A stretch of DNA of 64,000 nt, taken from NCBI RefSeq assembly GCF_030684315.1, contig NC_081365.1, positions 36,607,394-36,671,393 on the forward strand, in the 5' to 3' direction. The stretch comes from Stegostoma tigrinum. Its lineage: Eukaryota. Position numbers and translations under genes: made by a program. The notes under the pieces are model-generated. The model had not been told where the DNA came from, did no database searches, and worked only from the letters and a program-made list of their open reading frames with translations. Positions 2,451 through 47,129 of this stretch are shown one piece after another. The number at the start of each line of letters is the position of its first letter. Positions within the stretch are counted from its first letter, which is position 1.

Positions 2451-3360
2451 TTTTCTACACTTGTGCAGTCCTGACTACTTGAGCGTCTTGATTATAAATT
2501 GTTCCTTCATTGATTACTAAGCCTTCAGCTGTTAAGACCCTTTACTCTGGCCTTCCTTCCCAAAACCCTTCTGCCTTGCTACCTCTCCTTCCTCCTTGGA
2601 GACACTCTTTAAAACCCACTTCTGACTAATGTGTTTGGGTATTTGCCTTGATATTTCCTTGTTTAGTTGCCAATTGTCATTTTTAATGCTTGGAATTCTA
2701 ACCTTTTACATTACACTGTTTTAATGTAATTAAGCTATTTTGGTGAGGGAGGAAAGAAAGGAGTAAAAGATGGCCTGAAATTTAAATCTTCAAACTAACC
2801 TGTGCTTCACCTGATGAAGGGGTAGCACTTTGAAAGCTTGTGATTTCAAATAAAGCTGTTGGACTATAACCTGGTGTCCTGTGACTTGTGACCTTGCTCT
2901 GGTGCTTTTCCTTGTACTGTCTTACCCATGCCACCATTCTGGATCATCTACAGTGGTTTCTGGCATCAATATGCCATTCCAAATGCTAATTCTTCATACA
3001 TTTCATAACCTTATCCTTTGCTCAATTCCATTCAGCCCTACACTTTCCTCCTTGGAACTCTGTTTCTGAGCAGGTTTTTCCTCTGTGCCCCATATTAACC
3101 TTGCAAAAGCCTGCGACCCACACTTTGGGATTCTTTGCCTAAATTACTTGCCTTTCCTTGCCCCTCTTTTTCTTGGACCTCTTAAAATTTACCTGTTGGT
3201 TGTGACTACACTGATTTGCATGAGTGCTTTTGAGGCATCTTGAAGTCTCAAAAGCTGAACACAGATGAGCTCTTAACATTGCTGTTGTAGCTCTATTTGT
3301 GTCCAGTATGAGCCTTGAGGGCTCTTGGACATTTTTTTCACACATTAAAGATCTCTATAT
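2450..3360 (+). mobile_element. Degenerate L2-like LINE 3'-end fragments, interrupted by a Penelope-derived piece
   Basis: Two related pyrimidine-rich blocks (~2510-2700 and ~3090-3350) resemble L2 3' ends. Recognised by eye only. Confidence 0.45.
2807..2843 (+). ncRNA. Minimal type-I hammerhead ribozyme motif (Penelope-like family C)
   Basis: TCAC-CTGATGA-A-GGGGT agc ACTTT-GAAA-GC-TT-GTGA: 4-bp stem I, wobble-paired stem II and palindromic AAGCTT stem III. An AATAAA follows. Confidence 0.6.
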
Positions 3361-3403
3361 AAATACATTGTTCTATAGTCCTTTATAACTCTCTCTTTTA
3401 CAG

Positions 3404-3505
3404 ATGAAGTCTAAGATCGAAGAAAAGGCGAACAAAACATTTGATGTGTTTGTTGTAAAATCTTACAAAACTCAAATTGTATCTGGGACCAATTATTTCA
3501 TGAAA
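3404..3505 (+). CDS. Type-1 cystatin (stefin), coding exon 2 of 3
   Basis: Pyrimidine tract plus CAG acceptor. Encodes MKSKIEEKANKTFDVFVVKSYKTQIVSGTNYFMK, containing the QxVxG inhibitory loop (QIVSG). GTAAGT donor at 3506. Confidence 0.96.
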
Positions 3506-3554
3506 GTAAGTATACTTTTGCTTTAATGTTTTAGACCTGTCTTATTAGCAATAC

Positions 3555-3945
3555 TTAGCAATAGAAAGCTAGCCACCAGGATACATGAACATCAACTAGC
3601 CACAAAACGACATGATCCACTATCACTAGTATCCTTACATATAGATGAGGAGGGACAACACATCCATCCTAGGACAAGCCAAACAGAGACACGCACGAGA
3701 ATTCCTAGAAGCACAGCATTCCAACCGGAATTCCATCAACAAACACATTGGCTCCAAATCAATCTACCATCCGCTGAGGAAAAAGAACAGGAAATGACAT
3801 CACCAACCCAAGGAAACCTAAACATATAAATAGAAAGCAGGACACAACACCAGCGCTTCGGCGGAGGCTGACTGATGATGTTACCTAGTATGGTGATGAA
3901 ATGTCTGAAAACTAACCTTCCAGCTCAGCGAGCAAACTCACATCC
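3555..3945 (+). mobile_element. Penelope-like element family A, 3' fragment (GIY-YIG C-terminus plus hammerhead)
   Basis: Encodes RKLATRIHEHQLATKRHDPLSLVSLH. Hammerhead motif at 3869-3908. Flanked by AGCAATAC at 3547-3554 and 3946-3953. Confidence 0.9.
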
Positions 3946-4771
3946 AGCAATACCTTTAATACACACTCCTGTGCAGTGTGGCTAGATACTTTTGTAGCAC
4001 TCCCCCACCAACCAACTTGAATGATGATATCATTCCTACCGCAGACTGGTTTCCATACTCGGCAAACTTGTTATTAACTAGCACCTATGAGATCAGGAAT
4101 GTACTAGTTGATCGAGAGGTCCACGTAACCAATGTAAAATCCCACAAAAGTAATGAAAGTGTAATGCAGGGTTTACACCACTTATTTATTTACAGCACAA
4201 ATCACTGAAATATTAATACAAACTTTGTCTTAAAACTTACCTGCAGAGAGCCTTCCCACCTGCACCCTCAACTGACTACACAAACATCAGGGATTGCAAA
4301 AATAGGGTAAAATTCTGATATGGGAAATATAATGTTCACTGATTTATCGAGTGTCAGTACATACGGTGCTGGTTAAAACAAAGTTTGCTGTACTTGTAGA
4401 CTTTAGTTTGGTTTAACATATAGTAACTTTCCACTTGAGAAAGTGGAGGGGTGGAGGCATTTTTTAAAGTAGTTTTTATTGCTCAGTAGTTCCACATCCA
4501 ATGACTTCAAATTCATATTTGGGAAACTGGCTACAAAACTCCATTTACCGATTTGGTGGCTTATGAAACAAGGTTGGGGTAGGGGGAGTATGAGTAACTA
4601 GAATATTTGTTGTATGACAGCTGGAATGCTGCTCAGGCCTTTGACTCCCAGCTCAGGTTACTTTGTGACAAAAAAAGCATGTAAAAATGTTGATTTAATA
4701 CTTAAATTTATAGTTTTAAAAGGCATTATTGGTCTGCACTAGACTAACTTTTCTATTTTTGTATCAATTAG

Positions 4772-4900
4772 ATCCACGTCGGTGGTGATGACTACATACA
4801 TGTAAGATTATATCAAGATCTTCCTTGCAGGAATAGTGAAAGAGAAATATCTGCCGTACAGACCAACAAATTACACACTGATGAATTAGCCTATTTTTAA
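4772..4900 (+). CDS. Type-1 cystatin (stefin), coding exon 3 of 3
   Basis: TAG acceptor. Encodes IHVGGDDYIHVRLYQDLPCRNSEREISAVQTNKLHTDELAYF*, with the LP hairpin and the typical DELxYF end. The spliced protein is 101 aa. Confidence 0.96.
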   Translation: MHVGGDDYIHVRLYQDLPCRNSEREISAVQTNKLHTDELAYF

Positions 4901-5443
4901 AACACATCTTGATTTTAGTGCGCTAGGCTGGAGCAAAAGCAATTTCTCAGCTTGTGTATTCACTTGCTCACTTTCAGTGCCTCTATATCTTGGTGGGGAA
5001 AATACACTTGTATTTTTAAAATGCTAATTAAAGCTTTTCTTCTCCCCACCCTCTGAACTTCAGTGCGAATTGAGATGTTTAACAAGTAATCTGATTTCTT
5101 TCTGTTCTTTACCATAGTTTTAAGGAATGGAAAATTAGGTACAATTGTTTCAAAAGTTACAAGTACGCTTGGAAAATCAACTTAATGAACTAATCCACAA
5201 AAAGGGACAAATCCAGCAGCCAGAATGTTCATTGGTTAGCTGGTTTTGCTCCATACTAGGTTTAACTATGGAGATCCTACATGTTAGAAAAAGTGTAATG
5301 TCATTTTTTTTAACCATCTAAACTTGATGGAAAATGATTGAGTAACCTATGAACATAATGAAGACGTTTGTTTATAAATCTTGTTTACTGGAGGTTGAAA
5401 TAGGAAACAAATTCAAATATGCTTTTAAGTAATTCTGCGTTGT

Positions 5444-5453
5444 AATAAATAAA
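5444..5453 (+). promoter_or_regulatory. Candidate polyadenylation signal of the cystatin gene
   Basis: Two overlapping AATAAA hexamers (5444-5449 and 5448-5453), ~550 nt after the stop. An alternative ATTAAA lies at 5027-5032. Confidence 0.55.
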
Positions 5454-5849
5454 TATTACTCATCATACTGGAAAGCAAGTGTTGTAAATTATAATTTCTA
5501 CTTTTTCCTGAACCTAAGGGACATGTACACTTTCAGCTTGTTGACTTTTAATGTTAAAAGAAATACTTTTTTTACAAGGGACATAAAGGGAATTGAAAGG
5601 ATTGGATCAGTCATATTCCTAGCACAGCTGCTGTTCCATATCTTGAATTTAAAAACGACAGTTTTATCTTTGGATGTTAGCACAAGCATTTAAAGTCTAA
5701 TGGGAAAAAAAGCTGGAGTTAATTTTTAAAATTCAAATGCTGGTGACAGAAGGAAGTGCATCAGTCAGCTCTATTTCACATGCCCTGGGATGGCATAATT
5801 ATGCATTAGTGGTAATTTTTCTACTGATTCAGAATGTAGAACAGCTATT

Positions 5850-6030
5850 GCAGTTATTTGAGCATACTGTATGGGCAACACAGCAGCGCCACACAGTGCT
5901 GCATAGTTTTGGATGAAACCACATCTGCCCTTCTGGTTCTATGTAGTAGATCTCATGGAACTATTGAATGGATCAGGGAGTTGCCCTCGATTCGGGGTAC
6001 AAATGTTCATCTCTCAGAAGCTTCATTTTA
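5850..6030 (+). mobile_element. Degenerate SacSINE1/DeuSINE-like fragment
   Basis: Similar to the core shared with the copies at 29960, 49440 and 58270. Confidence 0.45.
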
Positions 6031-9000
6031 AAAGAACAAATTTAGATATGTAGTGACATGGTCACCTTTAACATAGGACAATTTGTATTAAGCCTCTGTT
6101 CTATTACCCTTCACCTATGAATGGGGCATAAAAATGGGTTGTGTTTACTACTGATCAAGTGACTCTTTATATTTTAAGATGAGTGCAATTATCCATTTTA
6201 AAGGTATTTTATTTCCCACCTCATCTTTTTGATAGCTGCTTAACATACAAAATGAAACTGGCCAGATTATTTAATGTTTGGATGGAGGTAGTCTTCTGAT
6301 TGCTTGCTTTGATGTTTCATTATAAAATCACTTGTTTTGAGGATCCTATCGTAAACTGTAGTCAATTGAACACATTCAATTCAACATTAAACACAAACTC
6401 ACTTCCACTTATCCTAAACCTAGAAATAGGTCAGATTTATCTAGTAGAACAACCAAAGTTCATGTGCGCAGCCTCAGTCTTTTCTTTGGAAGAAAGAAAA
6501 TATATTGGTTCATGGAGAGGGTGGAAGTGCATCTCAGCAATAAGTTCCACCAAAGCGTGAAATTACTGACATTTGTCAATGAGGAAACATTGCAAATTAT
6601 GGTCTTCCACACAACTCAGTGTTGTTCCATAACTACTGTACAGTATCATACTGGCTGTTACTTTTTTTTAACTAAGTAATACAGTCCCTTGAGTGTGTGA
6701 CCATAAAAACCCTATGGACTGGGCTTAAATGTTACAACTTTACTTGTGCAGTATTTTTCTCAACATGTTGGGAAAATTATAAAGTTACAGAAAATCATGA
6801 GAAACTCAGCAGATCATATTCTATTTGAAACATGAGCTTTGTTTTGTGTTCCACCCAGACCTGAATTTCTCTAATGCTGCATTTGTTTCAGATTTCCAGC
6901 ATCCACAGTACTTTGTTTTTAATTACAAAATCATCCCTGAGAAACATCTAATCCTTTTTTTTTTTGCTTTCTGAAATTGTAAATGCACAGTCCAACAAAG
7001 CTTACTCTGAATGTCTAGAAACTCTGAATCAAAACTAAATAAAAATTTCCACAACCACAGTTCTGGATTAAGAAATGGTTACTACTGAAAAGTGTATGAT
7101 AGGGCTTTTCTATGTGGTGAATAATTATATGTCCACCTCCAATAACAGGACCTTTATAGTGCAATTGCTGTTTGGATTTTCTCAGCAGCTGACATGACAA
7201 GTATCAAAGCGATTTTAACAAAAATTCAGACTGATAGCAATGTTGTTTGGGTGTCTGGTAAGAGACAGATGACTCTTTGGAAAAGACGTATCTAACACAT
7301 CATGTATAGTTGGTGTTACATCTATACAAACACACACACACACAACAAAAAGCACCAGTGGATTTTTATTACTAATGGGACATACTCTCCAGAAATAAAA
7401 CATTGGAACGATGTGATTTCTTCAGAAGTTAAAACTCCAGATTGCACATATCAGAACATGTCCAATATTTAAATACACATGAATAGACAGGAACAGAACC
7501 ACATTTTCTCTAGATTTAAGAACTGTTGATTCTTGAGTTCTATTTTTTAAAAAATGGAACCTTGACAAGTTCCAGTAGAATCACTGTTTCAATGGATACA
7601 GTAATACAGATAACAATGTTCCTTCAGCCAACATAGAGGCAATTCATGATTTTTGTAAGTATTACTGCAGTCAAATCGGGCAGATTTTATTGAAAAGAGC
7701 TTCTAAATGGCTTTGGCGTATAACACCCTTCCCCATCTTGTTTATCTTTAATGGAGAATACTTGAATATAACAACTCCACCACCCAACACAAGGCTAAGC
7801 AGACCATTATTGCCAATGTGACACTAGAAATTAAGGTAACTGGCAGGAATGACTGAAAAATACCTTTAGACTTTGAACCGATCACTGCTTTTTGTAAGAA
7901 AGAGCAACCAATTTGATCAGTGCCCAGGCTCAGGAGGAACTCTTGCATGGGCATTTAGGCATCAGGGAAAGGAAATAAAAAGATTCTGGTGCCCCATTCC
8001 CAATCAAACATACCACCCAGCAAGCTTTAAAGCATGCTAAATTGCTGGCAGATTTGGCCCCTCTTGTTTCTGCCCTACTGCTTGGAATAAGTAACTTGAG
8101 GACTCTTTAAATTGAACACCCGAGACAATAACCTGCACATACCAATAGTGTGTTTTGAACTGTAGATGAGGCAGTCAGTGAAACATCTGCAAAGATTCTA
8201 ATTTGACATTACTTAGTTATTCAAATGTCATTTACAATAAAGTTACAGCAAATGTTTAAATCCTGGCCTGAATGTCATAGATTCAAATACCAAACTGTAA
8301 TGTCTGAATTATGAGTTAAATTCTCAGGCTTCTATAATTGTGCAGCTTAAATCATTGGTATTTGTACTGTGCACCTACCCGATTACCAGATATAAACCTG
8401 ACCAGTCGGGTTTTGGCAGATGAGTATTTTCCTTTCACTTCAACTCGCTGAGACAGTCTGAGCGACATTGTAGCAATTCCAATTGTGATTAAATAGGAGT
8501 CCAGTTCTGAAGGGCAGTAGTTTTTTTTAAAAAAGCAAGTGCAACTTATAATTGTATAACCATAAAAACAAACAGCGAGTCTGGTATCTTATTGCAAATT
8601 AAGTTGGATTGGGCAATTTGAGGGAGATAAAACTTTAAAAAATTGTCTTGACATCCAAGTTATCTAATGATCCTACATGGGACAAAGGGAAAAACATTCT
8701 AGTAAATGAGGCTACGAAAACCTTCAGATACTTTGCTTTGCAACAACTTACATGATCTGTTCCATTGTGCAGTTTTTAAAAAAACGCTTAAACCATGCAC
8801 AAAACTGTCACAAGATATTCAAGATGGACAAGCATGTTTTTGTAAAGTTCACAGAAAGCTTACATCATACTTAGTTTGTTAGAACCATTTTTATGAGCTA
8901 TTTTAAGTGATTGCCAGAACTGCCAGTTTCCCCACAATTATAAGTCCATCAAATCCAAAACTTTTTGTTTATTATACCTATAAACGGTCCCTGAAATGGT

Positions 9001-9994: not shown

Positions 9995-11390
9995 TTTTCA
10001 CAGCACATCAATGACACTATCGGTGCTGCTTCCCTCTCCTGTATGGAATTAGAAAAACTTATTAATTTTGCTTCCAATTTCCACCCTGCTCTCACCTTAC
10101 CCGGTCCATCTTGGATACTTCCCTTCCTCTATACCTCTGAGGATAGGTTGGCCACCAACAGCCACTACAAACCCAGTCACTCCCACAGTTACATTGACTA
10201 TGCCCTCACACCCTACTTTCTGTAAAGAATACATTCCATTCTCTCAGTTTCTCCATCTCTGTTGCAGCTGTTCTGGTGATGCCTCTTCTGCAAGGTGTCC
10301 TCAGAAATGTCTATCTTTTTCCTCCACCGAGAATTCCCTACGATTGGGGTTGACAGGGTCATTAGGTGTGTCTGCTGCCCTCACTCCTTCTCTTCCCTCC
10401 CATAACACCAAAGGGTTCCCGGGTCCTCACCTACCATCTCACCAGTCTCCACATCCAACGAATCATAAGCTATTTTTGTCACCTCCTGTGGGATGTCACC
10501 ACCAGACGCATATTCCCCTTCCCTGACTTGTCAGCTTCTGCAGGGACTATGTACTCCAGGACAACCTGGCCCACTACCCAACATCCCCCCCATAGCACCT
10601 CCTCATGCAATTGCATAAGGTGTTATATCCGCTTGTTTACCTCCTGAGCATCCAAATGCCCAGACGCCTTCCTGGTGAAGCCGCAATTTACCTGCACTTA
10701 ATTCAATCTAGTCTACTATATTTGCTGCCCACAATGTGGCGTCCTCTATGTGAGAGTTTAAACACAGACTGGGTGACCACGTTGCAGAACACTCGTGTCC
10801 TGTTCATTACAAACAAAACCCTGAGGTTCTTGTTGCCTGCCACTTCAACACACCACTGTGTTCCCAGACCAACATGTGTGTCTCAGGCTTGCAACAGTGC
10901 TCCAGTGAGGCTCTGTGCAAGCTGGAAGAGCAGCATTTCACTTTCTACATGGGGACCCTGCAGTCTTCAGAATTCAATATTGAGTTCAATAATTTGAAGG
11001 TCTGAACACCACCTTCCATGTTCTTTACCGATTCCTACACCCTGTCACAACATGGGCTGTTTTCAGCGCAGCCAACCCATTTTCACTTACTAATGGTCCT
11101 TATTATAGCTTTTTCATCTCTCTGGCTTACCACTATTTATTCCTTTGCTTGCTTAACTCTCTTCCCCCTCTGGGCTCCATCTATATCTATTGCTTACTCC
11201 TTTACCCTCTTCTCCTTCTCCATTTTCAGCATATAAGCAGTTTCCAGTTAATATCGGTTCTGAAAAGGCGTCACTGGACCTGAAATATTAACTCTGCTTT
11301 CTCTCTGTACAGAGGCGGTCAGACCTACTGCATTTCTTTAGCAATTTCTATTTTGTTTCAGATTGCCAGTTTCCTCAGTTTTTTTGTTTT
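9995..11390 (+). mobile_element. Degenerate Penelope-like retroelement (RT C-terminus, GIY-YIG region, 3' repeat with hammerhead remnant)
   Basis: Frameshifted pieces HINDTIGAAS..ELEKLINFASNFHPAL, YKPSHSHSYIDY and CKEYIPFSQFLHL match the PLE RT/thumb. A hammerhead remnant lies at 11256-11293. Confidence 0.85.
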
Positions 11391-12033: not shown

Positions 12034-14087
12034 GATAAGGTATGAATGCATTAAAGAGATAGGCACAAGAATTGGACCGAATCCATCTACTATGAAATGG
12101 ACATCATTTCTATAGAAACAAGTACACTGATTGCAGGCATTTCAATGCATTTTATATCACCATTCAGACTCCAACGTTCTCTATCCCTCTTCATTACAAT
12201 GTCTACACTACAAAAGTACTTTGTCTAGGATAATTTTAATCAACCAAGCTGCAAAACGATGCTTGTCTCTTTCCTCTTCCTTCTCTCTCCAGTTCATATT
12301 ATTAACAGTTGAGCTCTATTTCGACTGCAAAATGTGGACCTGAGTATTACTAATCACAGGTAACACAGCATGCTGAGTTTTTATTAACAAGTCAGGAGGA
12401 ATACAAATGAACAAGGGTTTGTGATGGTCTTCTCACATCAACAGTTCTAACTGAGACAAAGTTGTTCAAATGTGAGATTTTTCTTTACTAACAGAGTGTC
12501 CTCTACAAAGCTGAAAAAACAGGAAAGATTTATTTGAGCTTATGATCAGAACCAGGATATTGTTGAAGCTACAATCAGCAGCTTGGGTTGTGATGACTGG
12601 GGAAAAACAAAAAACACTTGCTGGAAATTGTGAGAACTTGGGTAAGGGTAGAATTAAGGTCAGATGAAAAATTCACCACAACCAGACAGCCTGTGAACCA
12701 AGATAGTTAAGACAAAAACAAGATAAATAAGCACTTAGAAAAACTACTACAGGTCACTCAGAATTGGTAGAATATTATGCCAGCATACGTCATCACCTTC
12801 AGAATGGGAGAACATTGAAGAGGATAAAAATACTTGTAAGCATTCATGATTGAAATCTTGCCAATTTCTGCAGAGATTTGAATAAACTGCGCATGGGAAT
12901 TGGTCTGAGAAAAGATCAATTATTTTCATAACGTTTTGTAAAACATTAAACTCCTAATACAATATTAATTTGATGACAAAATAAGTGACAATAACATCTA
13001 CAATTCACTTAAAAATGGAATTAAAGGAATCTATGTTTATTATTTTCAATTTAGCTTTGAAATTGTGAAAGGTGAAGAGAACTCCTTTAGTTACAACATT
13101 CTCATTTTATTATGTGATCTCTGAATTCATAAGTGTAACTTCAGGAGATTGAACAAAAACGCATGCAATGTATTGAAATACAATACCGTTCAAATAACGT
13201 TGGCTAAAATGAAGAATGGCACATAGTGCGATACTTTCATTAGTAGGTCCAGGCACTATATAGCCTCCAAGATGAGGCCTCAAACCTCAACAGTTGCTCA
13301 TGGCAAGGTACCATTTTAGTAAAGGAAGTGAAGCCTCTGGGACAAACGGATGATTGTTGGTGGTTAAGTATCAGTTAAAATATCAACTTGTGTTCATTAA
13401 AGGAAAAAGCACAAAGCATTTTAGAAACAATTACTCGTCTTAATGTGATTTCTTGTTTGGGAGTAGGGTTGAGGTGAATTTCAAATATTACTAGAAAGGG
13501 ATACTTGTCATTTATTGTTCACTTTCTACTGGAGCTGTGAAGAGGACCTCAAACATGTCGAGAATGTTTTGTCAAGCTTTTACCAGCACTCTTTCAGTGT
13601 TTATTCTGAAAATATGCCTTGTGTTATTCTGCCATATTGGATACCTTGTTATGAGTCTAGAGGAGAAAGCAAATGCTTAGTCAAGGGAATCTTACAAAAG
13701 GAGCCCCTTAGTCTATATGAGGAATTGGAGGACGACACAAGGCTAGATAGAGCAGCATTTGGGACTCACTACAACAGGAGGCCTAGAACAGGTACAAACT
13801 CTCTCTCCTTCTCTAGAACTACTGCACCAATTCAGAGACCTGTGTTCCCTCTCAGTCAGTGCTTGGGCCATTCTGCAACATGTTGGGTGGCAGCCAGTGC
13901 ACTGGACATTTCAGTTCAAGTTGACAAAACTGATTCCAGTGATGAGGGCTTTCAATTCAAATAGATACCTTATTACCATAGACAAAACCACTCAATTTGT
14001 TGAAGCTGCAACTAACAAGAACGCTGGATTTATTATTGAGAAGTACTACGGCAAGTGGAATTCAGTCACAGAACGTTTTCAGAACAG

Positions 14088-14249
14088 CGATAACACAGTG
14101 TGGAGCTGGAGGAAGACAGCAGGCCAGGCAGCATCACAGCAGCAGGAAAGTTGATGTTTTGGGTCAGGCGTCAACTTTCCTGCTCCCTTCCTCCAGCTCC
14201 ACACTTATCTCCGACTCCAGCATCTGCAGTTCTTGCTCTGCTGGAGCAA
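14088..14249. mobile_element. Degenerate fold-back Penelope-derived element (family B-related)
   Basis: Inverted segments GTGTGGAGCTGGAGGAAG/CTTCCTCCAGCTCCACAC and GCAGGAAAGTTGA/TCAACTTTCCTGC. TSD TTTTCAGAACAG at 14076-14087 and 14250-14261. Confidence 0.75.
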
Positions 14250-14917
14250 TTTTCAGAACAGTGATGTGACAAAGCCTTGCACTTATGATCCTACCCTTTG
14301 AATTACTGACGTGAGCCTGAAAGAGACATGAGCTGGTGGTCAGCAATTTCTATCGAACAATGAAAGGAAAAATTAGGATAAGTAGTTACCTACCCATTTC
14401 CATGTATCCATTAGGGACTGCTTTCAATGTTTAAATAAAGCGAGTCTTGTTTCACAAAAAGAAACTTAATTCTATTTATTTAGAAGAGAAATTTCTTTAG
14501 CAAAAAAAGGACTTGAGCCAAATCATTTTTTAAAGTTTCATTATTTCAGTAAATAAATGTACTCAGAACTACAAATATTATTGTTTATTGTTCTCAATAG
14601 GTCAAATTCGTCAGTTAAGTATTTGTTTTATTTGAAAACTTCAGCAGCAGACCACACATCATCTCTGATGTGTTATCAAGCAATTGAATAATGTTATAAT
14701 ATACCTAAAACAAATAAACATTATTTTAATGCTAATAGTCAGCAGCACCTCTGCAACAAAAAAAAGTTTCAACCGTACAATTCTAGTTTAAGTTTCCTGC
14801 ATCATTTATTAAAAACATTTAAGTTTGGCACATCCACATCAAAAGTATATTTTAAAACAAAAAGTTTCAAAGGAAGGAAACTATGTGTGTGGTTGATAGA
14901 CTCAGTGCATGTCTTAC

Positions 14918-16140: not shown

Positions 16141-16179
16141 CAGGTCTCAACATCTTAAACTGGTTAACAGCCAAATATG

Positions 16180-16406
16180 TTTCAGTGATAATGGGAACTG
16201 CAGATGCCGGAGAATCTAAGATAATAAAATGTGAGGCTGGATGAACACAGCAGGCCCAGCAGCATCTCAGGAGCACAAAAGCTGACATTTCGGGCCTAGA
16301 CCCTTCATCAGAGAGCCTGATGAAGGGTCTAGGCCCGAAATGTCAGCTTTTGTGCTCCCGAGATGCTGCTGGGCCTGTTATGTTCATCCAGCCTCACATT
16401 TTATTA
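16180..16406. mobile_element. Fold-back Penelope-derived mini-element family B with hammerhead motifs
   Basis: Arms 16222-16311 and 16317-16406 are near-perfect inverted repeats. TSD TTAACAGCCAAATATG at 16164-16179 and 16404-16419. Confidence 0.9.
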
Positions 16407-16509
16407 ACAGCCAAATATGCTGATTCTGTCCAAAACACATCACATCCCACTGATCCAGACTGAATCCCATTAGCCACTGATCAGCCCACCTGACCAGCCT
16501 ATATCCTCC

Positions 16510-20429: not shown

Positions 20430-22520
20430 TAGAATTTATTGCCAGAGAATATGGTGATGAGCTACCATCTTGAACAACTGGATTCCTCGTGGTGTAATAT
20501 CATTAAGATATCCATCCACCATTTTTAACCAAGCAACAATGAAGGAATGACAAATTGCTTTTAGGTTCAGATGTACAATTGGGAGGGAAACTTGTAGGTG
20601 GCAGTGTTCACATGCACTTGCCATCTTTTCCTTCTAGCTGGTGGGGTTCACAAGTTTGTGACTTGCTCCAGTACATCTTTTGCACGGTACATAGGACGGT
20701 CTTGTTGCATGATGCACTGAGAGGGGAGGCAGTGAACTTTTAAACAATGGGATGCCAACCAAGCACATTGCTTTGCTATGCAGGCCCAAGTATTGTTAGC
20801 TTTGCATTCATCCAGTGAATCAGAGATCATTAGATTAAACTCCTAACTTGTTCTTTGTAGTCCTTGTAAAAGCTTTGAGGAATTAAGAAAATGAGTCATT
20901 TCCCACAGAATATCCAAATTGTGACCCGCTCTTATTAGAACAGTATTTACGCCACTTAGTCCAAGCTTGAACATTAGCTATGTTTTGTTATATACATCCA
21001 TTTCAAATGGCAATGAGCACACTGTACAGTGAACATTCCCACTTCAGATCTATGATGGATGAAGCACCTGAACATGAGTGGCTCTAGGGCATGATCCTGA
21101 CTAATTCCTCCAACAACATCCTAGGGCTTAGATGGTTGGTCTTCAAAGATCCTAAACACCTTCCTTAATGCCGATTGTCCTCCCACCACCATTCACTGAT
21201 TCCCACTTACTTAAATTTTACTGAAACTCTCTGATGCTGTACTTAGTCAAATGCTGCCTTGATGCCAAGGGTAACCTTTCTCTCATTTTGTATCTGAAAT
21301 TCAGCTGTGTCCACGTTACAACTAAGGCTGTAATAAGTTCTAGCGCTGAGTAATGCTGCTGAAACTCAAACTGAGCAAGCAGGTTATTATTCTGTAGACG
21401 CTTCCTAATATCATTATTGACAATTTCTTTATCACTTGTCTGATGATTGAGAGTAGACTGATGGGTAGTAATTGGCCAAATTGGACTTATCCTGCTTTTT
21501 GTGGACACACGTATTTGGGCAATTTTCTACATGGTTGCACAGATGCCAGGCTTCGAGCTGTTCTGAAAAAAAAACTTGTTTAAGAGCATGGCTAGCTCTG
21601 GAATACAAATATTCAATACTACTGCTGGGATGGTGTCAGGATTATAGATTTTGCAATGTCCAGTGTCTTCAGGCATTTCATAATATCACGTGGAATGAAT
21701 CAAATTAAAGGCAGAGTTGTAGGAACAGGCCAAGATGGATCAAGTCACTTGAAAATGCTTGCATCTACATATTTTCACAGATGCACTAGGCTTCAACCAT
21801 ACTGAGGATGGGGAAGTCAGTGGAACTTTCTCCTCAGGTTAATTATTTAAACGCACACTGTCTTTCACAACTAGATGTGGGAAGACTGCAGAGTAGACTA
21901 CTGATCTAATCCATTGGTTGTGGTATTGCTCAGATGTTGATAGCATGCTGCCTCCATTATCCCATCTAACAGTGGTTGCATCACACTGTAGGATGCATCT
22001 TCAGTGTGAAGAGGGAATTCAGTTATCACACACTTGTGACAATCATTCTTGTCATGAGGTTACCATGAAGAACCCACTATTTTCAACCTTGCAGCCAGCT
22101 GAGCTACAGTAACCCTAACGTTAAATATTTCTCTCTTATGGTTCTATGAGACTTTGGCAACTTTACCTTTAGATATACCTTCAACAGGTAGATTGGTGAT
22201 GATGAGAAAGAAGGTTTTTCCCTCTTTCTGATTCCTTCGTCATCTGCCACAGATGTTCTTTAAGCCTGGCCAGTCTATTAACAATATTGCTACTTAGACA
22301 TTTTTACTAATACTAAAGACCTCTATTGCGAACACATTTGTGCCCCTTCCGTTCCCAGTATTATTTTTCATGCGATGTTCAACATGTCGTGGGAGGGGCG
22401 GTGGTGGAGGAGGAGATTATCAGGCTTCCTTGCCCTTTTTGCTACAATATTTCGTGGGATCTAGAATCAATGTTGAGGCTTTCCAGAGCCATTTGCTCCA
22501 GAGTGAACACAATTATATCA
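20430..22520 (-). mobile_element. Degenerate LINE of the CR1/L2 group (second family); related pieces at ~19730-19965, 27090-27710, 31440-31620 and 48470-48770
   Basis: ORF 21218-21508 contains NNNLLAQFEFQQHYSALELITALVVTW, resembling the RT QFGF...DLITALV..W motif. The 3' sequence is shared with 63620-63975. Confidence 0.7.
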
Positions 22521-22527
22521 TCAATAT

Positions 22528-22756
22528 CAGAGATAATGTGAACTGCAGATGCTGGAGAATCCAGGATAACAAAGTGTGAAGCTGGATGAACACAGCAGGC
22601 CAAGCAGCATCTCAGGAGCACAAAAGCTGATGTTTCGGGCCTAGACCCTTCATCAGAGAGGCTCTCTGATGAAGGGTCTAGGCCGAAACGTCAACTTTTG
22701 TGCTCCTGAGATGCTGCTTGGCCTGCTGTGTTCATCCAGCTTCACACTTTGTTATC
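22528..22756. mobile_element. Fold-back Penelope-derived mini-element family B with hammerhead motifs
   Basis: Arms 22565-22660 and 22662-22756 with a 1-nt loop and a 37-nt tail at 22528-22564. TSD TATATCATCAATAT at 22514-22527 and 22757-22770. Confidence 0.92.
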
Positions 22757-22803
22757 TATATCATCAATATGATGGTTCTGTCCTGCCACTGGGACAGGAA
22801 ATA

Positions 22804-23249: not shown

Positions 23250-25330
23250 ATACACAGAAAAATCAGAGAGATGTACAGCACAGAAACTGGCCTCTCGGTC
23301 CAACTCGTCCAAGCCGACCAGATGTCATAAATAAATCTAGTTCTGTTTGCCATTATCTGGCTCCTGTCTGTCTGAATTCTTCCTTTGCATATAACCATTC
23401 AGATGTCTTTTAAATATTGTAATTGTACCAGCCTCCACCACTTCCCCTGGCAGCTCATTCCATACATGCACCACCCTCTGCGTGAAAGAGTTACCCCTTT
23501 CAACTTAAACCTGTTCCCTCTAGTTTTAGGCTTTTCCCCGGGTTGAGGGAGACCTTGCCTATTTACCCTATCCATGCCCCTCATGATTTTATAAACCTTC
23601 AGAAGGTCAGCCTCCAACATTCCAGGAAAAGTGGCACCTGTCTATTCAATCTGTCTATAACCCTAACCCTCCAACACTGGCAAAATCATTGTAAATCTTT
23701 TCTGAACCCTTTCAAGTTTCAGAACATCCTTCCTATTGCTGGGATACCAGAATTGCAAGCAATAGTCCAATACTCCAAAGGTGGCCTAACCAATGTCCTG
23801 TACATTTGCAACCTGACCTCCCAACGGTTAATTTCAACACAATGAACAATAAAAGCAAGCATACCAAGCATCTTCATCACTATACTATCCAATTGTGACT
23901 CCACTTTCAAGGAACTATGAGCCTGCACTCCAAGGTCTTTGTTCAGCAACACTCCCCAGGGCTAGCGAGTTTTGAGAAGATTCGTAGCTCAGGTTGAGGT
24001 TCTGGATGTGAGTTTGCTCACTGAGCTGGAAGGTTCGTTTTCAGACATTTCGTCACCATTCTAGGTAACATCATCAGTGAGCCTCCGGTGAAGCGCTGGT
24101 GTCACGTCCCGCTTTTTATTTATCTGTTTAGGTTTCCTTGGATTGATGTCATTTCCTGCATTGGTGATGTCATTTCCTGTTCTTTTTCTCAGAGGGTGGT
24201 AGATGGGTTCTAAATCAATGTGTTTGTTGATGGAGTTCCGGTTGGAATGCCATGCTTCTAGGAATTCTCATGCGTGTCTCTGTTTGGCTTGTCCTAGGGT
24301 GCATGTGTTGTCCCAATCAAAGTGGTGTCCTTCCTCATCTGTATGTAAGGATACTAGTGATAGTGGGTCATGTCACTCCCCAAGACCTTACCATTAAGTG
24401 TACAAGTCCTGCCCTGATTTTCCTTTCCAAAATGCAGCGTCTCTCATTTATCTAAATTAAACTCCATCTACCACTCCTTAGCCCATCTAACATAGAGACA
24501 AGATCCTGTTGTACTCGAGGTAACCTTCTCCACTGTCCACTTCACCTCCAATTTTGTTGTCTTTGGCAAGCTTACTAACCATATTGTCTACATTCGGATC
24601 CAAATCATTTATATTAAAATAACAAAATGCAGTGGACTCAGCACTGAATCTTATAGCACACCCATGGTCACAGGCCACCAGTCTGAAAAGCAACCCTCCA
24701 AGTGGCTAGTTCTCCCTGTATTCAATGCGATCTAATCTTGCTAACCAGTTTACCATGAAGAATCTTGTTGAATGCCTTACCAAAGTCCATAGAGATCATG
24801 TCGACTGCTCTGACCTTGTCAATCCTCTTTGTTACTTCTTCAAAAATCTCAATTAAGTTAGACAGACAGAATTTTCAACACACAAAGCCATGTTGACTAT
24901 TCTGAATCAGTCCTTGCCTTTCCAAATAAATGTAAACCCTGTCCCTCAGGATTCTCTCCACCAATGTGCCCACCACTAATTTCAGGTTCACCAGTCTATA
25001 GCTCCCTGGCTTTTCCTTCCCACCTTTCTTAAATAGTGGCACGGCATTAAACAACCTCTGGTCTTGCGGCACCTCAACTATGGCTATCGATGATACAAAT
25101 TTCTCAGCAAGGGGCCCAGCAATCACTTCCTTAACTTCCCACAGAGTTCCAGGTTATTTATGCATTTTAAGCCTTCCAGCACCACCACCTCTGTAATATG
25201 GATATTTTTCAAGATGTTGCTATTTCCCCACATTCTATATCTTCCATAGTACACACTGATGCAAAATACTCATTCGTATCTTTACCATTTCCTACAGTTC
25301 CACACATAGGCAGCCTTGTTGCTCTTTAAT
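23250..25330 (-). mobile_element. CR1 LINE RT/3' region, interrupted by a Penelope insertion
   Basis: Several minus-strand ORF pieces: PLFKKGGKEKPGSYRLVNL, SQHGFV, YRTLVRPPLEY, DLLKVYKIMRGMDRV. Confidence 0.9.
23963..24373 (-). mobile_element. Penelope-like element family A, tailed 3' fragment with hammerhead at 24041-24080
   Basis: Homologous to 36111-36500. TSD CACTCCCCA at 23950-23958 and 24374-24382, inside the CR1. Confidence 0.9.
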
Positions 25331-26912: not shown

Positions 26913-27148
26913 GTACGCTACGGGCTTGGTCCCCAACCGCAGAGGGGCCCGGGGAGAGTGATTGCCCTTGACATTGAGGCTGCCCTCGACCCGGCGTGGC
27001 GTTCAGACAGCCCTGGTGTGGCCCGAGTCAAGGGATTACGGAGTCGTGGGTGTTGGGTCTGGTGGTCAGCCTTCTCCGCACCAGGGTATGTCTTCAAGTG
27101 TACCCTCAGAATAATGTCCTAGGCTCAACCAAACTCAGCTACTTCGTA

Positions 27149-27334
27149 GATAATAAAATGTGAGGCTGGATGAACACAGCAGGCCAAGCAGCATCTCAGG
27201 AGCACAAAAGCTGACGTTTCGGGCCTAGACCCTTCATCATTTTGTGCTCCTGAGATGCTGCTTGGCCTGCTGTGTTCATCCAGCCTCACATTTTATTATC
27301 TTGGAATCTCCAGCATCTGCAGTTCCCATTATCT
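27149..27334. mobile_element. Fold-back Penelope-derived mini-element family B (apex partly deleted)
   Basis: Perfect inverted arms 27149-27209 and 27240-27300, with the tail on the right. TSD CTCAGCTACTTCGTA at 27134-27148 and 27335-27349. Confidence 0.9.
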
Positions 27335-27709
27335 CTCAGCTACTTCGTAAATGACTTTCTCTTTATCAGAGGGTCAGAAGTAAGTGTGACTCTGGTATGA
27401 CTTCCTCAGCTGAAGAGGCAGTCGTACTTGTTAACTCCGTTTCTCTCGCCGCAGATGCTGCCAGACCTGCTGAGTTTCAGATTTCCAGGACCTGCAGTAT
27501 TTTGTGCAATGTTCGGTGCCATTTCTGACTTCTCAGATACTGAAGCAAGTCACAGTTGTGATGTACAAGTGTCACCTGCAACAAGAGACAATCTGACGAC
27601 CCCCTTTCCCTCCCTATCCTCGCCACCATCACCCTTGAAGTTCAATAGCATTACCATCACTGAATCCATATGCTGAACATTAGCACTGATCAAAAACTTA
27701 ACTCGACTA

Positions 27710-31789: not shown

Positions 31790-33560
31790 TTTTTTAAAAT
31801 GTAATTACTGACTGGCCAGTCTAACATCAGTAGGGAAAATGCTCGAATCTATTACAAAAGATATGATACTATCAGCAATGTCAACATGGATTTATGAAAG
31901 ATAAATAATTTTGATTGACAAACCCACTGGAGTTTTTAGGCCGTAACTAGTATAGATAAGGGATATATGTGGTTTATTTGGATATTCAGAAATCTTTGGA
32001 TAAAGTCCACATTAGGTTACTGTGCAAAATCTTAACACATGGGATTGGTGGTAATATACTGGAACTGATACAGAATTGATTGCCAAACAGGAAAGAATAG
32101 GAAAAATTGGGTCTTTTCTGGAGTGGAAGGTGGTGATGAATGGAATACCACAGGTATCAGTACTTAAGGACCACATCTATTCACAATATGTATCAACAGT
32201 TTGGATGATGGAATAAAGTGTAGTACTTACAAGATTTTTGACAGCACGAAACTTACCAGTAAGGGTGGTAAAGAAGATGTAAAGAAGCTTCAGGACAATT
32301 TTTAGACAGGTTAAATGAATACATGGCCGAAGCAATACGATGTGGATAAACATGAATTTGACCACTTCAGTGTGAACAGCAATGTAAGTAGTATAATTTA
32401 AATTGGAACAGATTGGGAAATATTTATTTACTAAGGGACCTGTGTGTCCTTGTACCAGTCAGTGGAAGCAAGCTTGCGAGTGCAGTAAGGAAAAAGGTTA
32501 GCCTTTGCTAAAAGGTTTGAACAGAAGAAGAGGCAAGTCTTACTGCATCTGTACAGCATCTTGGTGAGACCACACCCAGACTATTATGTAGGTAAGTGTG
32601 GAGCTGGAGGAACACAACAGGCCAAGCAGCATCAGGGGAGCAGGAAATCTGACGTTTCAGAAAAGGGTCCTGACCCAAAACGTCAGCTTTCCTGTTCCTC
32701 CAGCAACAGTGTTATCCCTGACTCCAGCATCAACAGTTCTCACTATCTCGGAGTACTATGTGCAGTTTTTATTTCCTTGCTAAGAAAAACTCCCTGACAG
32801 AGAGCGGTAAAAGGCTCACTAGGTTGATTCTGGGTAATGGCAGGTTTATCCTCTTTGGAGAGATTGGGTTGACTGGGCCTGAATTCTCTGGAGTTTCAAA
32901 GAATGAGTGGCAACATCAAATTCTGACAAGGCTAAACAGACTGGATGCAAGGATAATGTTCCCTCTAGCTAGGGAATCCAGAACAAGGTGTTACAGTCTC
33001 AGGATATGTGCAAAAATATACCCAGGTGCCTCTGTCTTGCATTGTAGAATTGCACAACCTGTTTTATATCTTTTGGTGTTCTTCCAACCAAAATATAATC
33101 ACCCTACATTTCTCTGCATTGAATCTCAAATGCCACTTACTGCCCATACCACCAACTTGTCAATGTCCTTTTTGGAGTTTCATACTATCCTCTTCACAGT
33201 TTACAATTGTTCCAAGTTTGTCATTTGCAAGCTTGTAAATTGTCCCCTGCACCCAAGATCCAAATCATTAATATCAGGAAAAACAATGGTCTCAATACTG
33301 ATCCAATGCATACCTTCCATTCTCCAAACAAATTGACCATTATACTCTGTTTTCTATCATTGAGCTAATTTTGTATCCATTTTACCATTTGTGGTTTTTG
33401 TAACATGATCTAAACCTAACTCAAAATCTGAGGTACTATATCAAATACCCCTGAAAATTCATTTTTACCATGTAGTAAGCATTAGCCTCATCAACTCTTT
33501 CTATTACTTCTTCAAAAGAACTCCTATCAAGTTAGCTAAATGCAACTTCTGCTTTATAAG
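31790..33560. mobile_element. CR1 LINE fragments (+ at ~31790-33005, - at ~33010-33560), with a degenerate Penelope fold-back at ~32595-32750
   Basis: RT motif remnants (QHGFMK, YLDIQK..DKV, GIPQVSVL) and LNRLDARIMFPLARESRTR. Confidence 0.75.
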
Positions 33561-34449: not shown

Positions 34450-36184
34450 GTAAGGGGAAATCCTACTAGCTGGTTCAGAATTGGAATAAATCCAGGTTGT
34501 TTGTTTTTTTTTCAACTTTATCTTCGATCCAGCTTGTCTCTAGTGACATAACTGATACTTGTACTTGTTTTGATCCTCAAAAAAGTGATCTGGATTAGTC
34601 ATAAGTTTTTAAAATACCATAATATGTGAACATTTGATTGAGATTTATTCTCACAATTCAAAATAAATCTAAATAAGTTTAAAGTACTTGGACTAGTCCC
34701 AAGCTTCACATGGAGCAGGGCTGTTTTTAAGGGCTTATTTTGTTTGAAAAGGATGGGTTTCACCTGTACTGAAGAGGAACCAATATCCTAGCAGGAACAT
34801 TCCCTAATTCTGATAGGGGAAACAGTAAACTATTAGGGGGAAAATCCTTGGTAGCAGACTAAATGGAAAGATAGATGAGGATGGTTTTTAAATTTTAAAA
34901 GAATAATTAAAAAAGACATAAGAGCAAGTCAGAGAATGAAGTACCTCTGAAGAATTAAACTGCATTTATTTCAATGCAAGGGGTCTTGCAGGTAAGGCCG
35001 AACTCAGCATGTTTGGGAACACGGGACTGGAACTTTGAAGCCATTACATTAAATGTGGCTGAGGGACGAACAGGACTAACAGCTTAATGTAAGATAACAA
35101 AGTGTGAAGCTGGATGAACACAGCAGGCCAAGCAGCATCTCAGAAGCACTTAATGTGCTGAGTTTTAGGTACAGTAGGAAGGATAGAAAAAGAGGCAACA
35201 GGAGGAAGAGTAGTGCTTTTAATTAAGGAAGACGTTACTGCTGTAACTAAAAGATATTTCTGACAAATGGTCCAGTGAAAATATTAGGAACAAAATGAAA
35301 GTAGAAATTAAAAATCCCTTTGGAATTGTACAGTGTTTCCTTCAATAGTCAGAAGGAAATTGAGGAACAAATGTAGCGAGATTTCAGATATACACAAGAA
35401 TAAAATTTGTAAGGGGAGATTTTAGTTACTCAAACACTGACTGGGATTACCATGGTGTTAAAGGTTTGGATGGTGAAGAATTTACTAAAATTTTCTTGAA
35501 CCCGTGTAAATATTCCTACTAGAGATGGAGCAAAAGTTGACTCTGTTTGGTAATAAGACAGGGCAAATGACTGAAGTGATAGTACGGGAATACTTTGGGT
35601 CTAGTGATCATAATTTTTTGAAAAACATTGTGGAAAGGATAAGTCTTCCATTTAAAAATTAATTTTTTTTAATGATGAGACAAAAATTGATTGGAGTAGA
35701 CCCTTTGCAGGAAAAGGGATGTCTGAAATGGGATGTTTTCAAAAATGTGATAACTAGTTCTGCCTTATGTTTTGGTTAATAAAAAGTAAAGCTGGGAGAA
35801 TTAAAGAACAATGGATGAATAAAGATAGAGGTTCTAGTCCAGAGTTTAAAAAAAAATCACATTAGATATAGACAACAGTTCAAATGAATCTCTTGAATGG
35901 CGAAGAGCAGCGTAGGGGCATTGATAAAACAGAGATCAGGAAGGCAGAGAGGATATGAGAATCTTACTTGTCAAGTCTAAGAATAATCCAAATAGAACCT
36001 GTTAGTACGTTTAAGAGCAAGAGAACCACTAGAGAGTAGGACCCCTTAAAAGTCAACAAGGTCATCTTTGCGTTGAACCTGAAGAGGTGGGAGAGATATT
36101 AAAATGAATAGCGAGTTGATAAGATTTGTAGCTCAGGTTGAGATTCTGGATGCGAGTTTGCTTGCTGAGCTGGAAGGTTAGTTT

Positions 36185-36224
36185 TCAGACGTTTCGTCAC
36201 CATTCTAGGTAACATCATCAGTGA
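36185..36224 (-). ncRNA. Minimal type-I hammerhead ribozyme motif
   Basis: TCA-CTGATGA-T-GTTACC tagaat GGTGAC-GAAA-CG-TC-TGA on the minus strand. Confidence 0.75.
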
Positions 36225-36908
36225 GCCTCCGACGAAGCGCTGGCGTTATGCCTGCTTTCTATTTAGCTGGTTAGGTTTCCTTGGGTTGGTGATGTCGTTT
36301 TCTGTTCTTTTTCTCAGAGGATGGTAGATTGATTTGGAGCCAATGTGTTTGTTGGAGTTCCGGTTGAAATGCCATGCTTCTAGGCATTCTCGTGCGTGTC
36401 TGTTTGGCTTGTCCTAGGATGGACGTGTTGTCCCAATCAAAGTGGTGTCCTTCCTCATCTGTATGTAAGGATACGAGTGATAGTGGGTCATGTCGTTTTG
36501 TGGCTAGTTGATGTTCATGTATCCTGGTGGCTAGCTTTCTGCCTGCTTGTCCAATGTAGTTCGTCATCTACAAAATACCTTGCAAGAGTTGTGACAAACA
36601 CTACATTGGACTAACAGGCAGAAAGCTAGCCACAAAACGACATGACCCACTATCACTCGTATCCTTACATACAGATGAGGAAGGACACCACTTTGATTGG
36701 GACAACACGTCCATCCTAGGACAAGCCAAACAGACACGCACGAGAATGCCTAGAAGCATGGCATTTCAACCGGAACTCCAACAAACACATTGGCTCCAAA
36801 TCAATCTACCATCCTCTGAGAAAAAGAACAGAAAACGACATCACCAACCCAAGGAAACCTAACCAGCTAAATAGAAAGCGGGCATAACGCCAGCGCTTTG
36901 TCGGAGGC

Positions 36909-36948
36909 TCACTGATGATGTCACCTAGAATGGTGACGAAACGTCTGA
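36909..36948 (+). ncRNA. Minimal type-I hammerhead ribozyme motif
   Basis: TCA-CTGATGA-T-GTCACC tagaat GGTGAC-GAAA-CG-TC-TGA: intact core, perfect 6-bp stem II and a GUC site, with predicted cleavage after 36945. Confidence 0.8.
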
Positions 36949-37606
36949 AAACTAACCTTCCAGCTCAGCGAGCAAACTTGCATCCATTAAAATGAATATT
37001 TTACAAGAAATGGAAGCTAGAGAATTTTGGTGATGTTTTGAAAACAGTTTACATAACAGAAGAGGAATGGTGGATAAATCTCTGGGACCTGATCTAGTGT
37101 ATCCCAGGATTTTGTGGGAAGTTAGGGAGGAAATTGCAGAACCCCCCACAGAAGTATTTGTATCATCTATAAATATGGGTGATGTGCCAAATGGCTGGAG
37201 AGTAGCATGTGTTGTGCCTTTAAGGGATGTAAGGAGAAGCCTGGGAACTATAGACCTGTGAGCCTGACTTTGGTGGTGGGTAAGTTGTTGGAAGTGATTT
37301 TAAAGATAGGATTGACATGCATTTGGAGAGGCAAAGAATGATGAGGGATAGTCAGTGTGGTTTTGTGTAAGGGGAAATGGTGTTTCACAAACTTGGAGGT
37401 AACCAAGAAGATTGAGGGCAGAGTAATTGACATTGTTTACTTGGACTTTTTAAAATGCCTTTGACAAGGTTCCCCATGGTAAACTAATTCAGGTGAGCTT
37501 GCCAATTGGATACAAAGTTGGCTTAATGGCAGGAGATGGTGGAGGGTTGTTTTTTTTCTGGCAGTGTTCCAGAGATCAGTGCTAGGTCCACTTTTGCCAT
37601 TTGTAT

Positions 37607-46325: not shown

Positions 46326-47129
46326 CCTCAAGTGTTATTAGCCTTGAAAATAAAAGGTTTGGCTATCAGATGACTTGAAACCTACTCTAAAGGAAACTAA
46401 TCGTGGTTCTTGACTTGCCAAGGTTTTAAGTCAAAACTTAGTTCACCTGCTAACTATATACCTAGCTAGATCACCCACAAATAAACGAAAACCAAACACC
46501 GTATCCCAGTTGCAGTTTGAGCAGTGATCTAAATATTAGCAAAATTGTCTTTTGCTTTATAGGAAATTTGTGCAATCCAACATCCTAAATTTAGCTACAG
46601 TTTTAACTGCATTTCTCATGAACTGTGATCTGTGCACTCAAACACCAAGAATTCTTTTTGATCTTTTACAGCCTAGTTCACTGCATGATACCCTTGTGAC
46701 AACAGAATCAAAAATGACACCTTCCGAGTATACCCAAATCTTTCTGAACCTGACTGCAGTTTTTTGCTGTCATAACCCTTGCACAGTGTGAATTTCCAAC
46801 AGTCAAGGTATCGTTCTGGAAATATGAAGTCAATAAAGTTTAGTATCTTCATTATCTTAACAAGAGTTATTTTAAACATAGATAACAAGGTGTAGAGTTG
46901 GATGAACACAGCAAACCAAGCAACAGAGGAGCAGGAAAGTTGACGTTTCAGGCCTAGACCCTTGGGTTTAATTATTTTAGTTATCTAGTTATCTTAAACA
47001 TAATCAATTTAAACAAAACTCTGGAAAAATTCATTGTATGTAAAGAAAGCACAACTTAACAGTCACTACTTCAGCTGAAGTATTGATAATACATATACAA
47101 TGATAACACAGCCCTTTTTTTAAAGGGGG

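Follow-up and report, generated by a model that had tools for sequence, protein, structure and literature searches.

A fold-back hairpin at a hammerhead motif in Stegostoma tigrinum: probably the shortest insertion product of an abundant Neptune-type Penelope-like element

We analysed the fold-back hairpin at 22514-22770 of a 64,000-nucleotide stretch of Stegostoma tigrinum DNA (the window) and found it to be of a known kind, namely, a minimal insertion of a Neptune-type Penelope-like element (PLE). Its arm is the pseudo-LTR (pLTR), with a minimal hammerhead, of a very abundant element of this type, and the hairpin therefore consists of two pLTRs placed head to head. We are fairly confident that it is the shortest insertion product of the autonomous element and is made afresh at each insertion.

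Throughout, position 0 is the first C of the hammerhead core, and the coordinates of all features are listed in Table 1. The layout given in the initial annotation (TSD of 14 nt, tail of 37 nt, arm of 96 nt, loop of 1 nt, arm of 95 nt, TSD of 14 nt) was recovered in full by the direct-repeat search and the arm alignment, as was the core starting at 22666, 4 nt from the apex; when the same repeat search was applied to 300 random window positions, it returned a single repeat of 12 nt or more. The two arms (96/95 nt) differ by 2 mismatches and one 1-nt gap, and the hairpin RNA has an MFE of -193 kcal/mol (z -24), a value equalled by 0 of 200 shuffles. Compared with the long copy L046, the tailed arm plus tail (134 nt) is 97.8% identical to its 3' end, and the tail-less arm (96 nt) is 96.9% identical. 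The two cores, one per arm, lie on opposite strands 9 nt apart, and both are damaged: the minus-strand core carries G25A, a CpG decay that breaks the palindromic helix III, and in the plus-strand core a helix-II C is lost and stem I carries G29A. The unpaired G at the apex is ambiguous: it could derive from a cap, or it could be the -5 base of the other arm, copied from the template. Both host-element junctions are crossed, with 0-1 differences, by contigs of the public runs X5 and X7, which may be the assembly's own source; no empty-site joint was among the joints listed from the run contigs, beyond which there were 1,452 further joints.

Table 1. Features of the hairpin at 22514-22770 and related copies in the window
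Feature	Position	Strand	Remarks
Left TSD	22514..22527	.	14 nt, AT-rich, exact direct repeat
PLE tail	22528..22564	-	37 nt, +92 to +128, element 3' end
Tailed arm	22565..22660	-	pLTR -4 to +91; element sense on minus strand
Minimal hammerhead core, tailed arm	22629..22656	-	features from the cited sections of PMC4209133
Single unpaired G, apex	22661..22661	+	
Inverted tail-less arm	22662..22756	+	pLTR -4 to +91
Minimal hammerhead core, tail-less arm	22666..22692	+	predicted cut after 22692
Right TSD	22757..22770	.	exact direct repeat
Sibling fold-back, different subfamily	16164..16419	-	arms end at -4 and 0; 16-nt TSD
Asymmetric sibling	27134..27349	+	15-nt TSD; tailed arm begins at +31, tail-less arm ends at +1
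Older sibling, centre deleted	14076..14261	+	12-nt TSD
Older degenerate sibling	32580..32750	+	without clear TSD
Tail-less copy	46865..47002	-	+6 to +91; 16-nt TSD, one mismatch

The parent element was identified by searching the 3.2-Gb genome itself with the tail-plus-arm half and reading the best 30 loci. Long copies joined to a PLE ORF were found: in L021, L026 and L030 the same 134 nt continue for 1.6 kb via a pyrimidine-rich 3' UTR into a reading frame that encodes the YIDD motif of an RT, a CX4CX2C linker and a GIY-YIG/CCHH endonuclease. The identical 134 nt occur after the 3' UTR (L021) and before the ORF (L171, L200), and the 37-nt tail of the hairpin terminates the long RT/EN copies L021, L026 and L030 and precedes the ORF in L171 and L200. 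At further loci the pLTR and tail are followed by the N-terminus of the ORF, which has its first in-frame ATG at +166 and is open for 632 codons up to the locus edge, and in L049 the build of the hairpin is repeated at 3.7 kb with coding arms. The order of the parent, whose ORF was assembled from overlapping loci with no single full-length copy read end to end, is pLTR and tail, ORF (N-terminal domain, RT, CX4CX2C linker, GIY-YIG), 3' UTR, and again pLTR and tail. As in EN+ PLEs, a PLE-type RT (DKG motif, YIDD) and, at the C terminus, a GIY-YIG are joined in a single ORF across these overlapping loci, with a CxxC between VYC and LYIG and two His downstream (L048, L026). The CX4CX2C linker (L048, L014) fits the CX2-5CxxC of Neptune and Nematis described in the cited sections of PMC8557442, and by the sequence of this linker the parent is classed as being of Neptune or Nematis type.

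Using the RT-EN piece as the query, we retrieved 60 homologs, 705-1058 aa in length; Pfam RT domains are present in most of them and GIY-YIG domains in some. Both domains occur in the best homolog (53% identity) and in homologs at 50% identity, and no named Neptune or Nematis protein was among the 60. Direct GIY-YIG Pfam matches of the parent pieces were weak (E 0.003-0.017, below the cut-off), the N-terminal and RT pieces had no direct match to Pfam RVT_1, and a PDB sequence search with the RT-EN piece returned 0 hits. Young copies at L196, L199, L200, L208, L211, L213 and L214 have 632 open codons to the locus edge, their N-terminal domain is separated from the RT by a variable repeat of Thr/Ala/Asp/Pro, and at L208/L209 ORFs lie at both sides of an inversion. 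The parent family may have been active recently.

Our assignment of the ribozyme is based on the published features of minimal hammerheads, since an Rfam search of the hairpin gave no hammerhead match up to E=1; it returned 3 weak miRNA-hairpin matches and nothing else. The family has the minimal type I core boxes, the extra base after A9, the G10.1-C11.1 pair and the palindromic 15.2-16.2. Among 181 arms, the helix II pairs are formed in 95-98% and the 2-bp stem I in 96-97%, and no real covariation was detected in these arms, which hold one-sided changes only. The same extra base between 9 and 10.1, G10.1-C11.1 and palindromic 15.2-16.2, together with a missing loop 3 and a short helix I, are shared with the minimal hammerheads of metazoan PLE pLTRs defined in the cited sections of PMC4209133. 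According to these sections, opposite-strand motif pairs in Schistosoma are 100-700 bp apart, in contrast to the 9 nt between the cores here, and there are 2,000-9,000 motifs per genome, compared with the ~171,000 exact cores of the present one. No hammerhead appears in the MFE folds computed for a single sense segment and for the corresponding dimer, in which -1 to +5 pairs with +24 to +29; thus, activity may need a protein, as for the Poseidon element PAc.

To characterize the insertions as a population, we used one real long copy as the reference for mapping arms in the window, in 160 kb of DNA flanking it and at 90 loci chosen around exact cores on contig C1, a choice that biases the sample toward arms containing the core. 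The 3' ends of the 254 arms cluster at ~+91 and at +123 to +128. Among the 70 head-to-head pairs, 64 have one tail, four have two and two have none; a flanking repeat of 12-19 nt was found in 48 of the 70 (14-16 nt in 40 of these) and none in 17, allowing one mismatch and with lengths accurate to ~2 nt. These insertions show the pattern described for PLEs in the cited sections of PMC8557442, where the 5' end is adjoined by an inverted 5'-truncated copy and only one end bears a tail of 30-40 bp, with a TSD; inverted pLTRs, tails, TSDs and junction palindromes are also described for PLEs in those of PMC3846280, and the same curation rules are given in those of PMC8969392.

A MITE, i.e. a DNA transposon derivative, would likewise be short, non-coding and present in many copies with inverted repeats. 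However, instead of a TSD of fixed length and symmetric terminal inverted repeats, we found TSDs varying from 12 to 19 nt, asymmetric ends and sequence running on into an RT/GIY-YIG ORF, and we therefore rejected this reading, which is almost certainly wrong. The initial annotation had argued against a MITE from long variable TSDs and a one-sided tail, in agreement with the 64 one-tailed pairs and 12-19-nt TSDs seen here, and had proposed retrotransposition via a Penelope-type RT/GIY-YIG, for which the same two properties and the continuity with the RT/GIY-YIG frame provide the support. On the other hand, its distinct non-autonomous ribozyme-hairpin family was not supported. In such a self-propagating family, transcripts of a few master fold-backs would serve the PLE protein as templates for complete new copies. 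Consistent with this are the number of copies (at least 6,429), the recurrence of apices (among the first 50 fold-backs listed, five share one apex and three have that of the hairpin at 22514-22770), the different subfamily spectra of short and long arms, and the existence of non-autonomous PLE derivatives (section 10 of PMC8557442 and bioRxiv 10.64898/2026.07.22.740005, in the parts cited). Nevertheless, we consider it very unlikely: the arm is the parent's own pLTR, and by hand count the first 50 fold-backs listed, out of at least 6,429 in the genome, have 34 distinct apices. The apex of the hairpin recurs in L071 and L083, which belong to another subfamily and have the tail at the other side; the apices that recur are what the joining of two -4 ends would give, and solo and kilobase-armed copies stop at the same point. 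Moreover, intact cores are found in 23 of 76 arms ending at the apex hotspot (see below) versus 52 of 83 long arms, the long set being biased to exact cores. Minis are found in several subfamilies, and at the level of the sample they do not trace to a shared master. A separate self-copying ribozyme-hairpin family is thus probably not present.

The position of the apex is far from random. Of the 170,936 exact cores in the genome, 12,858 (7.5%) lie in the 6,429 exact symmetric fold-backs located <=30 nt from a core, whereas a control 14-mer at -36 to -23 has 102,062 copies, of which only 82 (0.08%) lie in a total of 41 fold-backs. This 94-fold excess at the core confirms that the apex is tied to the position of the ribozyme, as had been noticed in the window. 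Stops of single arms are equally concentrated: 81 of the 183 core-reaching arms (53 of 140 in the young subfamily alone) stop at -9 to +2, corresponding to 0.037 per nt versus 0.001-0.002 just upstream, a per-base rate ~20x higher. Since the hotspot stop is also present in solo copies and opposite kilobase-long arms, it is independent of the hairpin. Many copies have their 5' end at -4 to -6, at a C within a pyrimidine run, with a spread from -1 to -7. In an artefact check of ends at -1 against the divergent 3' UTR, none of the 81 had the pyrimidine-rich upstream stretch. Of 19 ORF-bearing matches with a 5' pLTR (27 of 30 matches seen), five begin at -1 to -3, and six ORF-bearing matches in the same set reach hundreds of bases into an upstream copy. 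The hotspot is not a general rule, as a second, Poseidon-like PLE family has no such hotspot, with 3 fold-backs among 1,659 cores using search patterns not identical to those above. Seven internally deleted copies (L186, L187, L189, L191, L193, L205 and L210) have a pLTR start at -1 to -7 joined inside the ORF, as if the RT had run off and then jumped to a new template. In the sample L063-L155, several arms end near -322 of the reference (-320 to -322), inside a short tandem repeat at the ORF 3' end; these may represent another favoured end point or may be artefacts of the alignment.

We next considered the base preceding the stop, counting by hand the base before the candidate C in copies that end exactly at this C behind four A/T bases. 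Among the first 100 of 871 matches listed for -4, this base is G in 77; after removal of 36 element-derived AAAAG rows matching the inverted arm it is G in 41 of 64, and where the preceding base is T, in 14 of 23. For the other subfamily, in which the last C is at -5, the first 100 of 600 matches listed gave G in 19 of 41 after removal of 59 AAAAG rows, and in 10 of 14 after T. At a control end, +39, G was found in 11 of 31, or 5 of 25 after removal of 6 templated rows, and the background frequency of G is 22-25%. The difference between -4 and the control end is significant (Fisher p 3e-4); the excess is partial (46-64%) and less pronounced in the other subfamily, where p is 0.02 against 30%. 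Some of the G rows listed for -4, -5 and +39 may be arm-to-arm junctions, and the local sample of loci had 4 G of 11 before the candidate C. The two commonest full-length apices match the joining of two -4/-5 ends, with or without a single G. A stop at a C in a pyrimidine run combined with an untemplated G suggests run-off of the RT at a capped start rather than ribozyme cleavage, and we consider -4/-5 to be probably the capped start of the element transcript. For transcription starts at a C in such a run, the consensus is TCT. C-initiated starts in pyrimidine runs occur in vertebrates (cited sections of PMC6954239), and the Penelope start lies inside the pLTR (cited sections of PMC2377424).

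Two other origins of the stop have to be weighed against a capped start. Cleavage by the ribozyme could produce the RNA terminus that becomes the fold point of the element, as the apex adjoins the core and some arms begin at +26 to +36. However, a type I hammerhead cuts 3' of its core, here predicted at +27/+28 and thus 32 nt from the apex at -4, and the 13 of 249 ends at +26 to +36 (1.2 per nt, in a sample biased toward exact cores) compare with 0.9 and 0.8 per nt in the flanks. A second pile of 5' ends at the cut (+28) is therefore not borne out by the arm-end counts, and cleavage was found to be dispensable in vitro (cited sections of PMC11167929), making this origin highly improbable. Accordingly, the description of the element as folding at a hammerhead is right in that the apex lies beside the core, but the ribozyme is not the cause of the fold. 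It would instead be a passenger, fully base-paired and decaying within the hairpin, found at the apex because it is at the 5' end of the RNA. Somewhat less improbable, and still unlikely, is that the RT stalls before the C-rich run (G-rich in the cDNA), or that the hotspot reflects survival bias after deletion of the palindrome centre. A C-run does lie directly upstream of -4, and the ends spread over several bases. Yet solo copies without a palindrome show the same stop, 102 of the 183 arms pass the C-rich run with a low stop rate, and stalling gives no reason to expect an untemplated G whose position moves from -5 to -6 between subfamilies and which is missing at the control end.

How the two arms come together is less clear-cut. 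The copies end 3' at two fixed sites, ~+91 and ~+128, between 12-19-bp TSDs. The tail sites of both pLTRs, 5' and 3', might serve as starting points for reverse transcription; from the 5' pLTR, run-off at the cap would come after 95-132 nt, often with the addition of a C opposite it. On balance, we favour a scheme in which the endonuclease cuts the two strands ~15 nt apart, both ends prime (at +128 and +91), and the cDNAs are joined head to head, so that two cDNAs both running off the cap would give the hairpin at 22514-22770. By analogy, such twin priming on both target strands fits the biochemistry of PAc: both strands are cut and extended by the PLE protein of the anole, and RT starts at two internal sites bracketing the tail (cited sections of PMC11167929). 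With the same parent and the same stop, the second arm could instead arise by the first cDNA folding back and priming itself, with a trim at +91 by the endonuclease; self-priming is argued for inverted PLE insertions in the cited sections of PMC3846280, and we regard it as rather unlikely here. It would naturally give one tail in 64 of 70 pairs, a strict rule that is not explained by independent priming, and is in line with the palindromes at junctions and the 20 of 64 pairs in which both arms stop at the hotspot. The arms of a pair also mostly share their haplotype, diagnostic sites usually agreeing (47-52 of 54-59, where 50-70% is expected), which fits one arm being copied from the other. 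Against it, in 16 of 64 pairs it is the tail-less arm that extends further 5', exceeding the tailed arm by >800 nt in three of them (in 21 pairs it extends less far), and a cDNA copying itself cannot yield a longer copy, although later deletion across the palindrome could mimic unequal arms. Furthermore, L065 and L137 have different subfamily haplotypes in their two arms, at least two diagnostic-site differences separate the arms in 10 of 57 pairs, and solo tail-less copies end at +91 by themselves.

Taking the capped start and twin priming together, we tentatively suggest, with somewhat less than even confidence, that the genome is a fossil record of a cycle in which the capped transcript starts 4-5 nt upstream of the hammerhead, at a pyrimidine initiator, the RT primes on both target strands and from either pLTR, sometimes on two RNAs, and cap-templated bases help to join the cDNAs. 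If true, this would explain the inverted-pLTR-plus-tail signature of PLEs, and would put the ribozyme at a point where cleavage would take off the cap.

The other copies in the window agree in part with the earlier claim that the same architecture recurs there. The sibling at 16164-16419 has the same build as the hairpin, and a 12-nt TSD is present at 14076-14261. In contrast, 27134-27349 is asymmetric, with its tail at the opposite side and a single core because its arms end at +1 and start at +31, and the copy at ~32.6 kb has no clear TSD, a search at 32580-32750 yielding nothing longer than 8 nt. No inverted arm was detected at 46865-47002. The three young window copies represent two subfamilies, each with matching long copies.

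Among known systems, the EN+ PLEs Neptune and Nematis (cited sections of PMC8557442 and PMC3846280) share with our insertions the pLTR hammerhead, the head-to-head inverted 5'-truncated copy, the 30-40-bp tail at one end, the TSD, the junction palindrome, and the C-terminal GIY-YIG with CX2-5CxxC linker and CCHH. Our insertions differ from those in consisting of only two pLTRs, in their thousands of copies, the nucleotide-sharp stop and the untemplated G; their TSDs are 12-19 nt versus 8-10 in the rotifer PLE examples of the same sections, and the targets at the sampled loci are AT-rich unique DNA, as opposed to microsatellites in Neptune/Nematis-type examples. Poseidon PAc of the green anole (cited sections of PMC11167929) shares the two RT starts bracketing the tail, the cutting and extension of both strands, the AT-rich targets and a ribozyme unneeded for insertion. 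However, PAc belongs to another PLE clade, its ORF starts inside the ribozyme rather than at +166, and inverted products and the 5' end are not treated in those sections. Non-LTR retrozymes (cited sections of bioRxiv 10.64898/2026.07.22.740005) are likewise non-coding, related to PLE pLTRs and equipped with a type I hammerhead, but form head-to-tail tandems with ribozymes on one strand. As the hairpin is head to head with one core per strand, and lacks two or more head-to-tail ribozyme units on the same strand, we rejected this assignment; TRF found no tandem arrays in the 64-kb window. L1 inversions split one RNA into non-overlapping parts, unlike the insertions described here, both arms of which copy the same stretch. 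With LINE-1 twin priming and its 5' untemplated G (PMC4859970), these insertions share 5' inversion and a cap-derived G as hallmarks.

The cited sections of PMC3846280, PMC8557442 and PMC11167929 treat the origin of the one-tailed inverted repeats of PLEs as an open question. To this question the present data add a sharp, probably cap-marked stop beside the ribozyme and hints of two templates. In the main texts of the open literature we found no cap signature, no defined start hotspot for PLE fold-backs and no twin priming for PLEs; Repbase, Dfam, subscription papers or supplements may already hold the PLE family of the hairpin. The thousands of minimal products, the sharp end and the occasional two-haplotype arms make twin priming and self-priming distinguishable, and the sharp end with its probable cap mark predicts an exact transcription start. 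For annotation, such hairpins should be masked as PLE fragments, not as MITEs or miRNA precursors; the genome carries thousands of near-perfect hairpins of 95 bp.

Two minus-strand exons flank the hairpin, the second being a weak Pfam MIX23 match (E 0.003), and the hairpin is thus probably in intron 1 of a MIX23-like gene, in which case it would belong to the pre-mRNA. This probable MIX23/CCDC58 gene, with a CpG island and the two exons, extends over 26349-19041 (minus strand). The window also contains other repeats. At 36098-36998, the second, Poseidon-like PLE family, with its own hammerhead motif, forms a fold-back with 361-nt arms that are 99% complementary, an apex in the GIY-YIG coding region, a one-sided tail and a 13-nt TSD; related pieces are located at 3563-3947 and 23972-24374. 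At 10001-11002 lies an old Neptune-type RT/EN fragment from a different family; it is frameshifted, shares 34-42% protein identity with the parent and is followed by a hammerhead-like motif near 11265. ARAGORN found nothing in the window. LINE RT ends, presumably CR1/L2-like, are present as fragments at 1647-1967, 42121-42648 and 61495-62958, and tRNA-like SINE pieces are located at 27719 and 37617.
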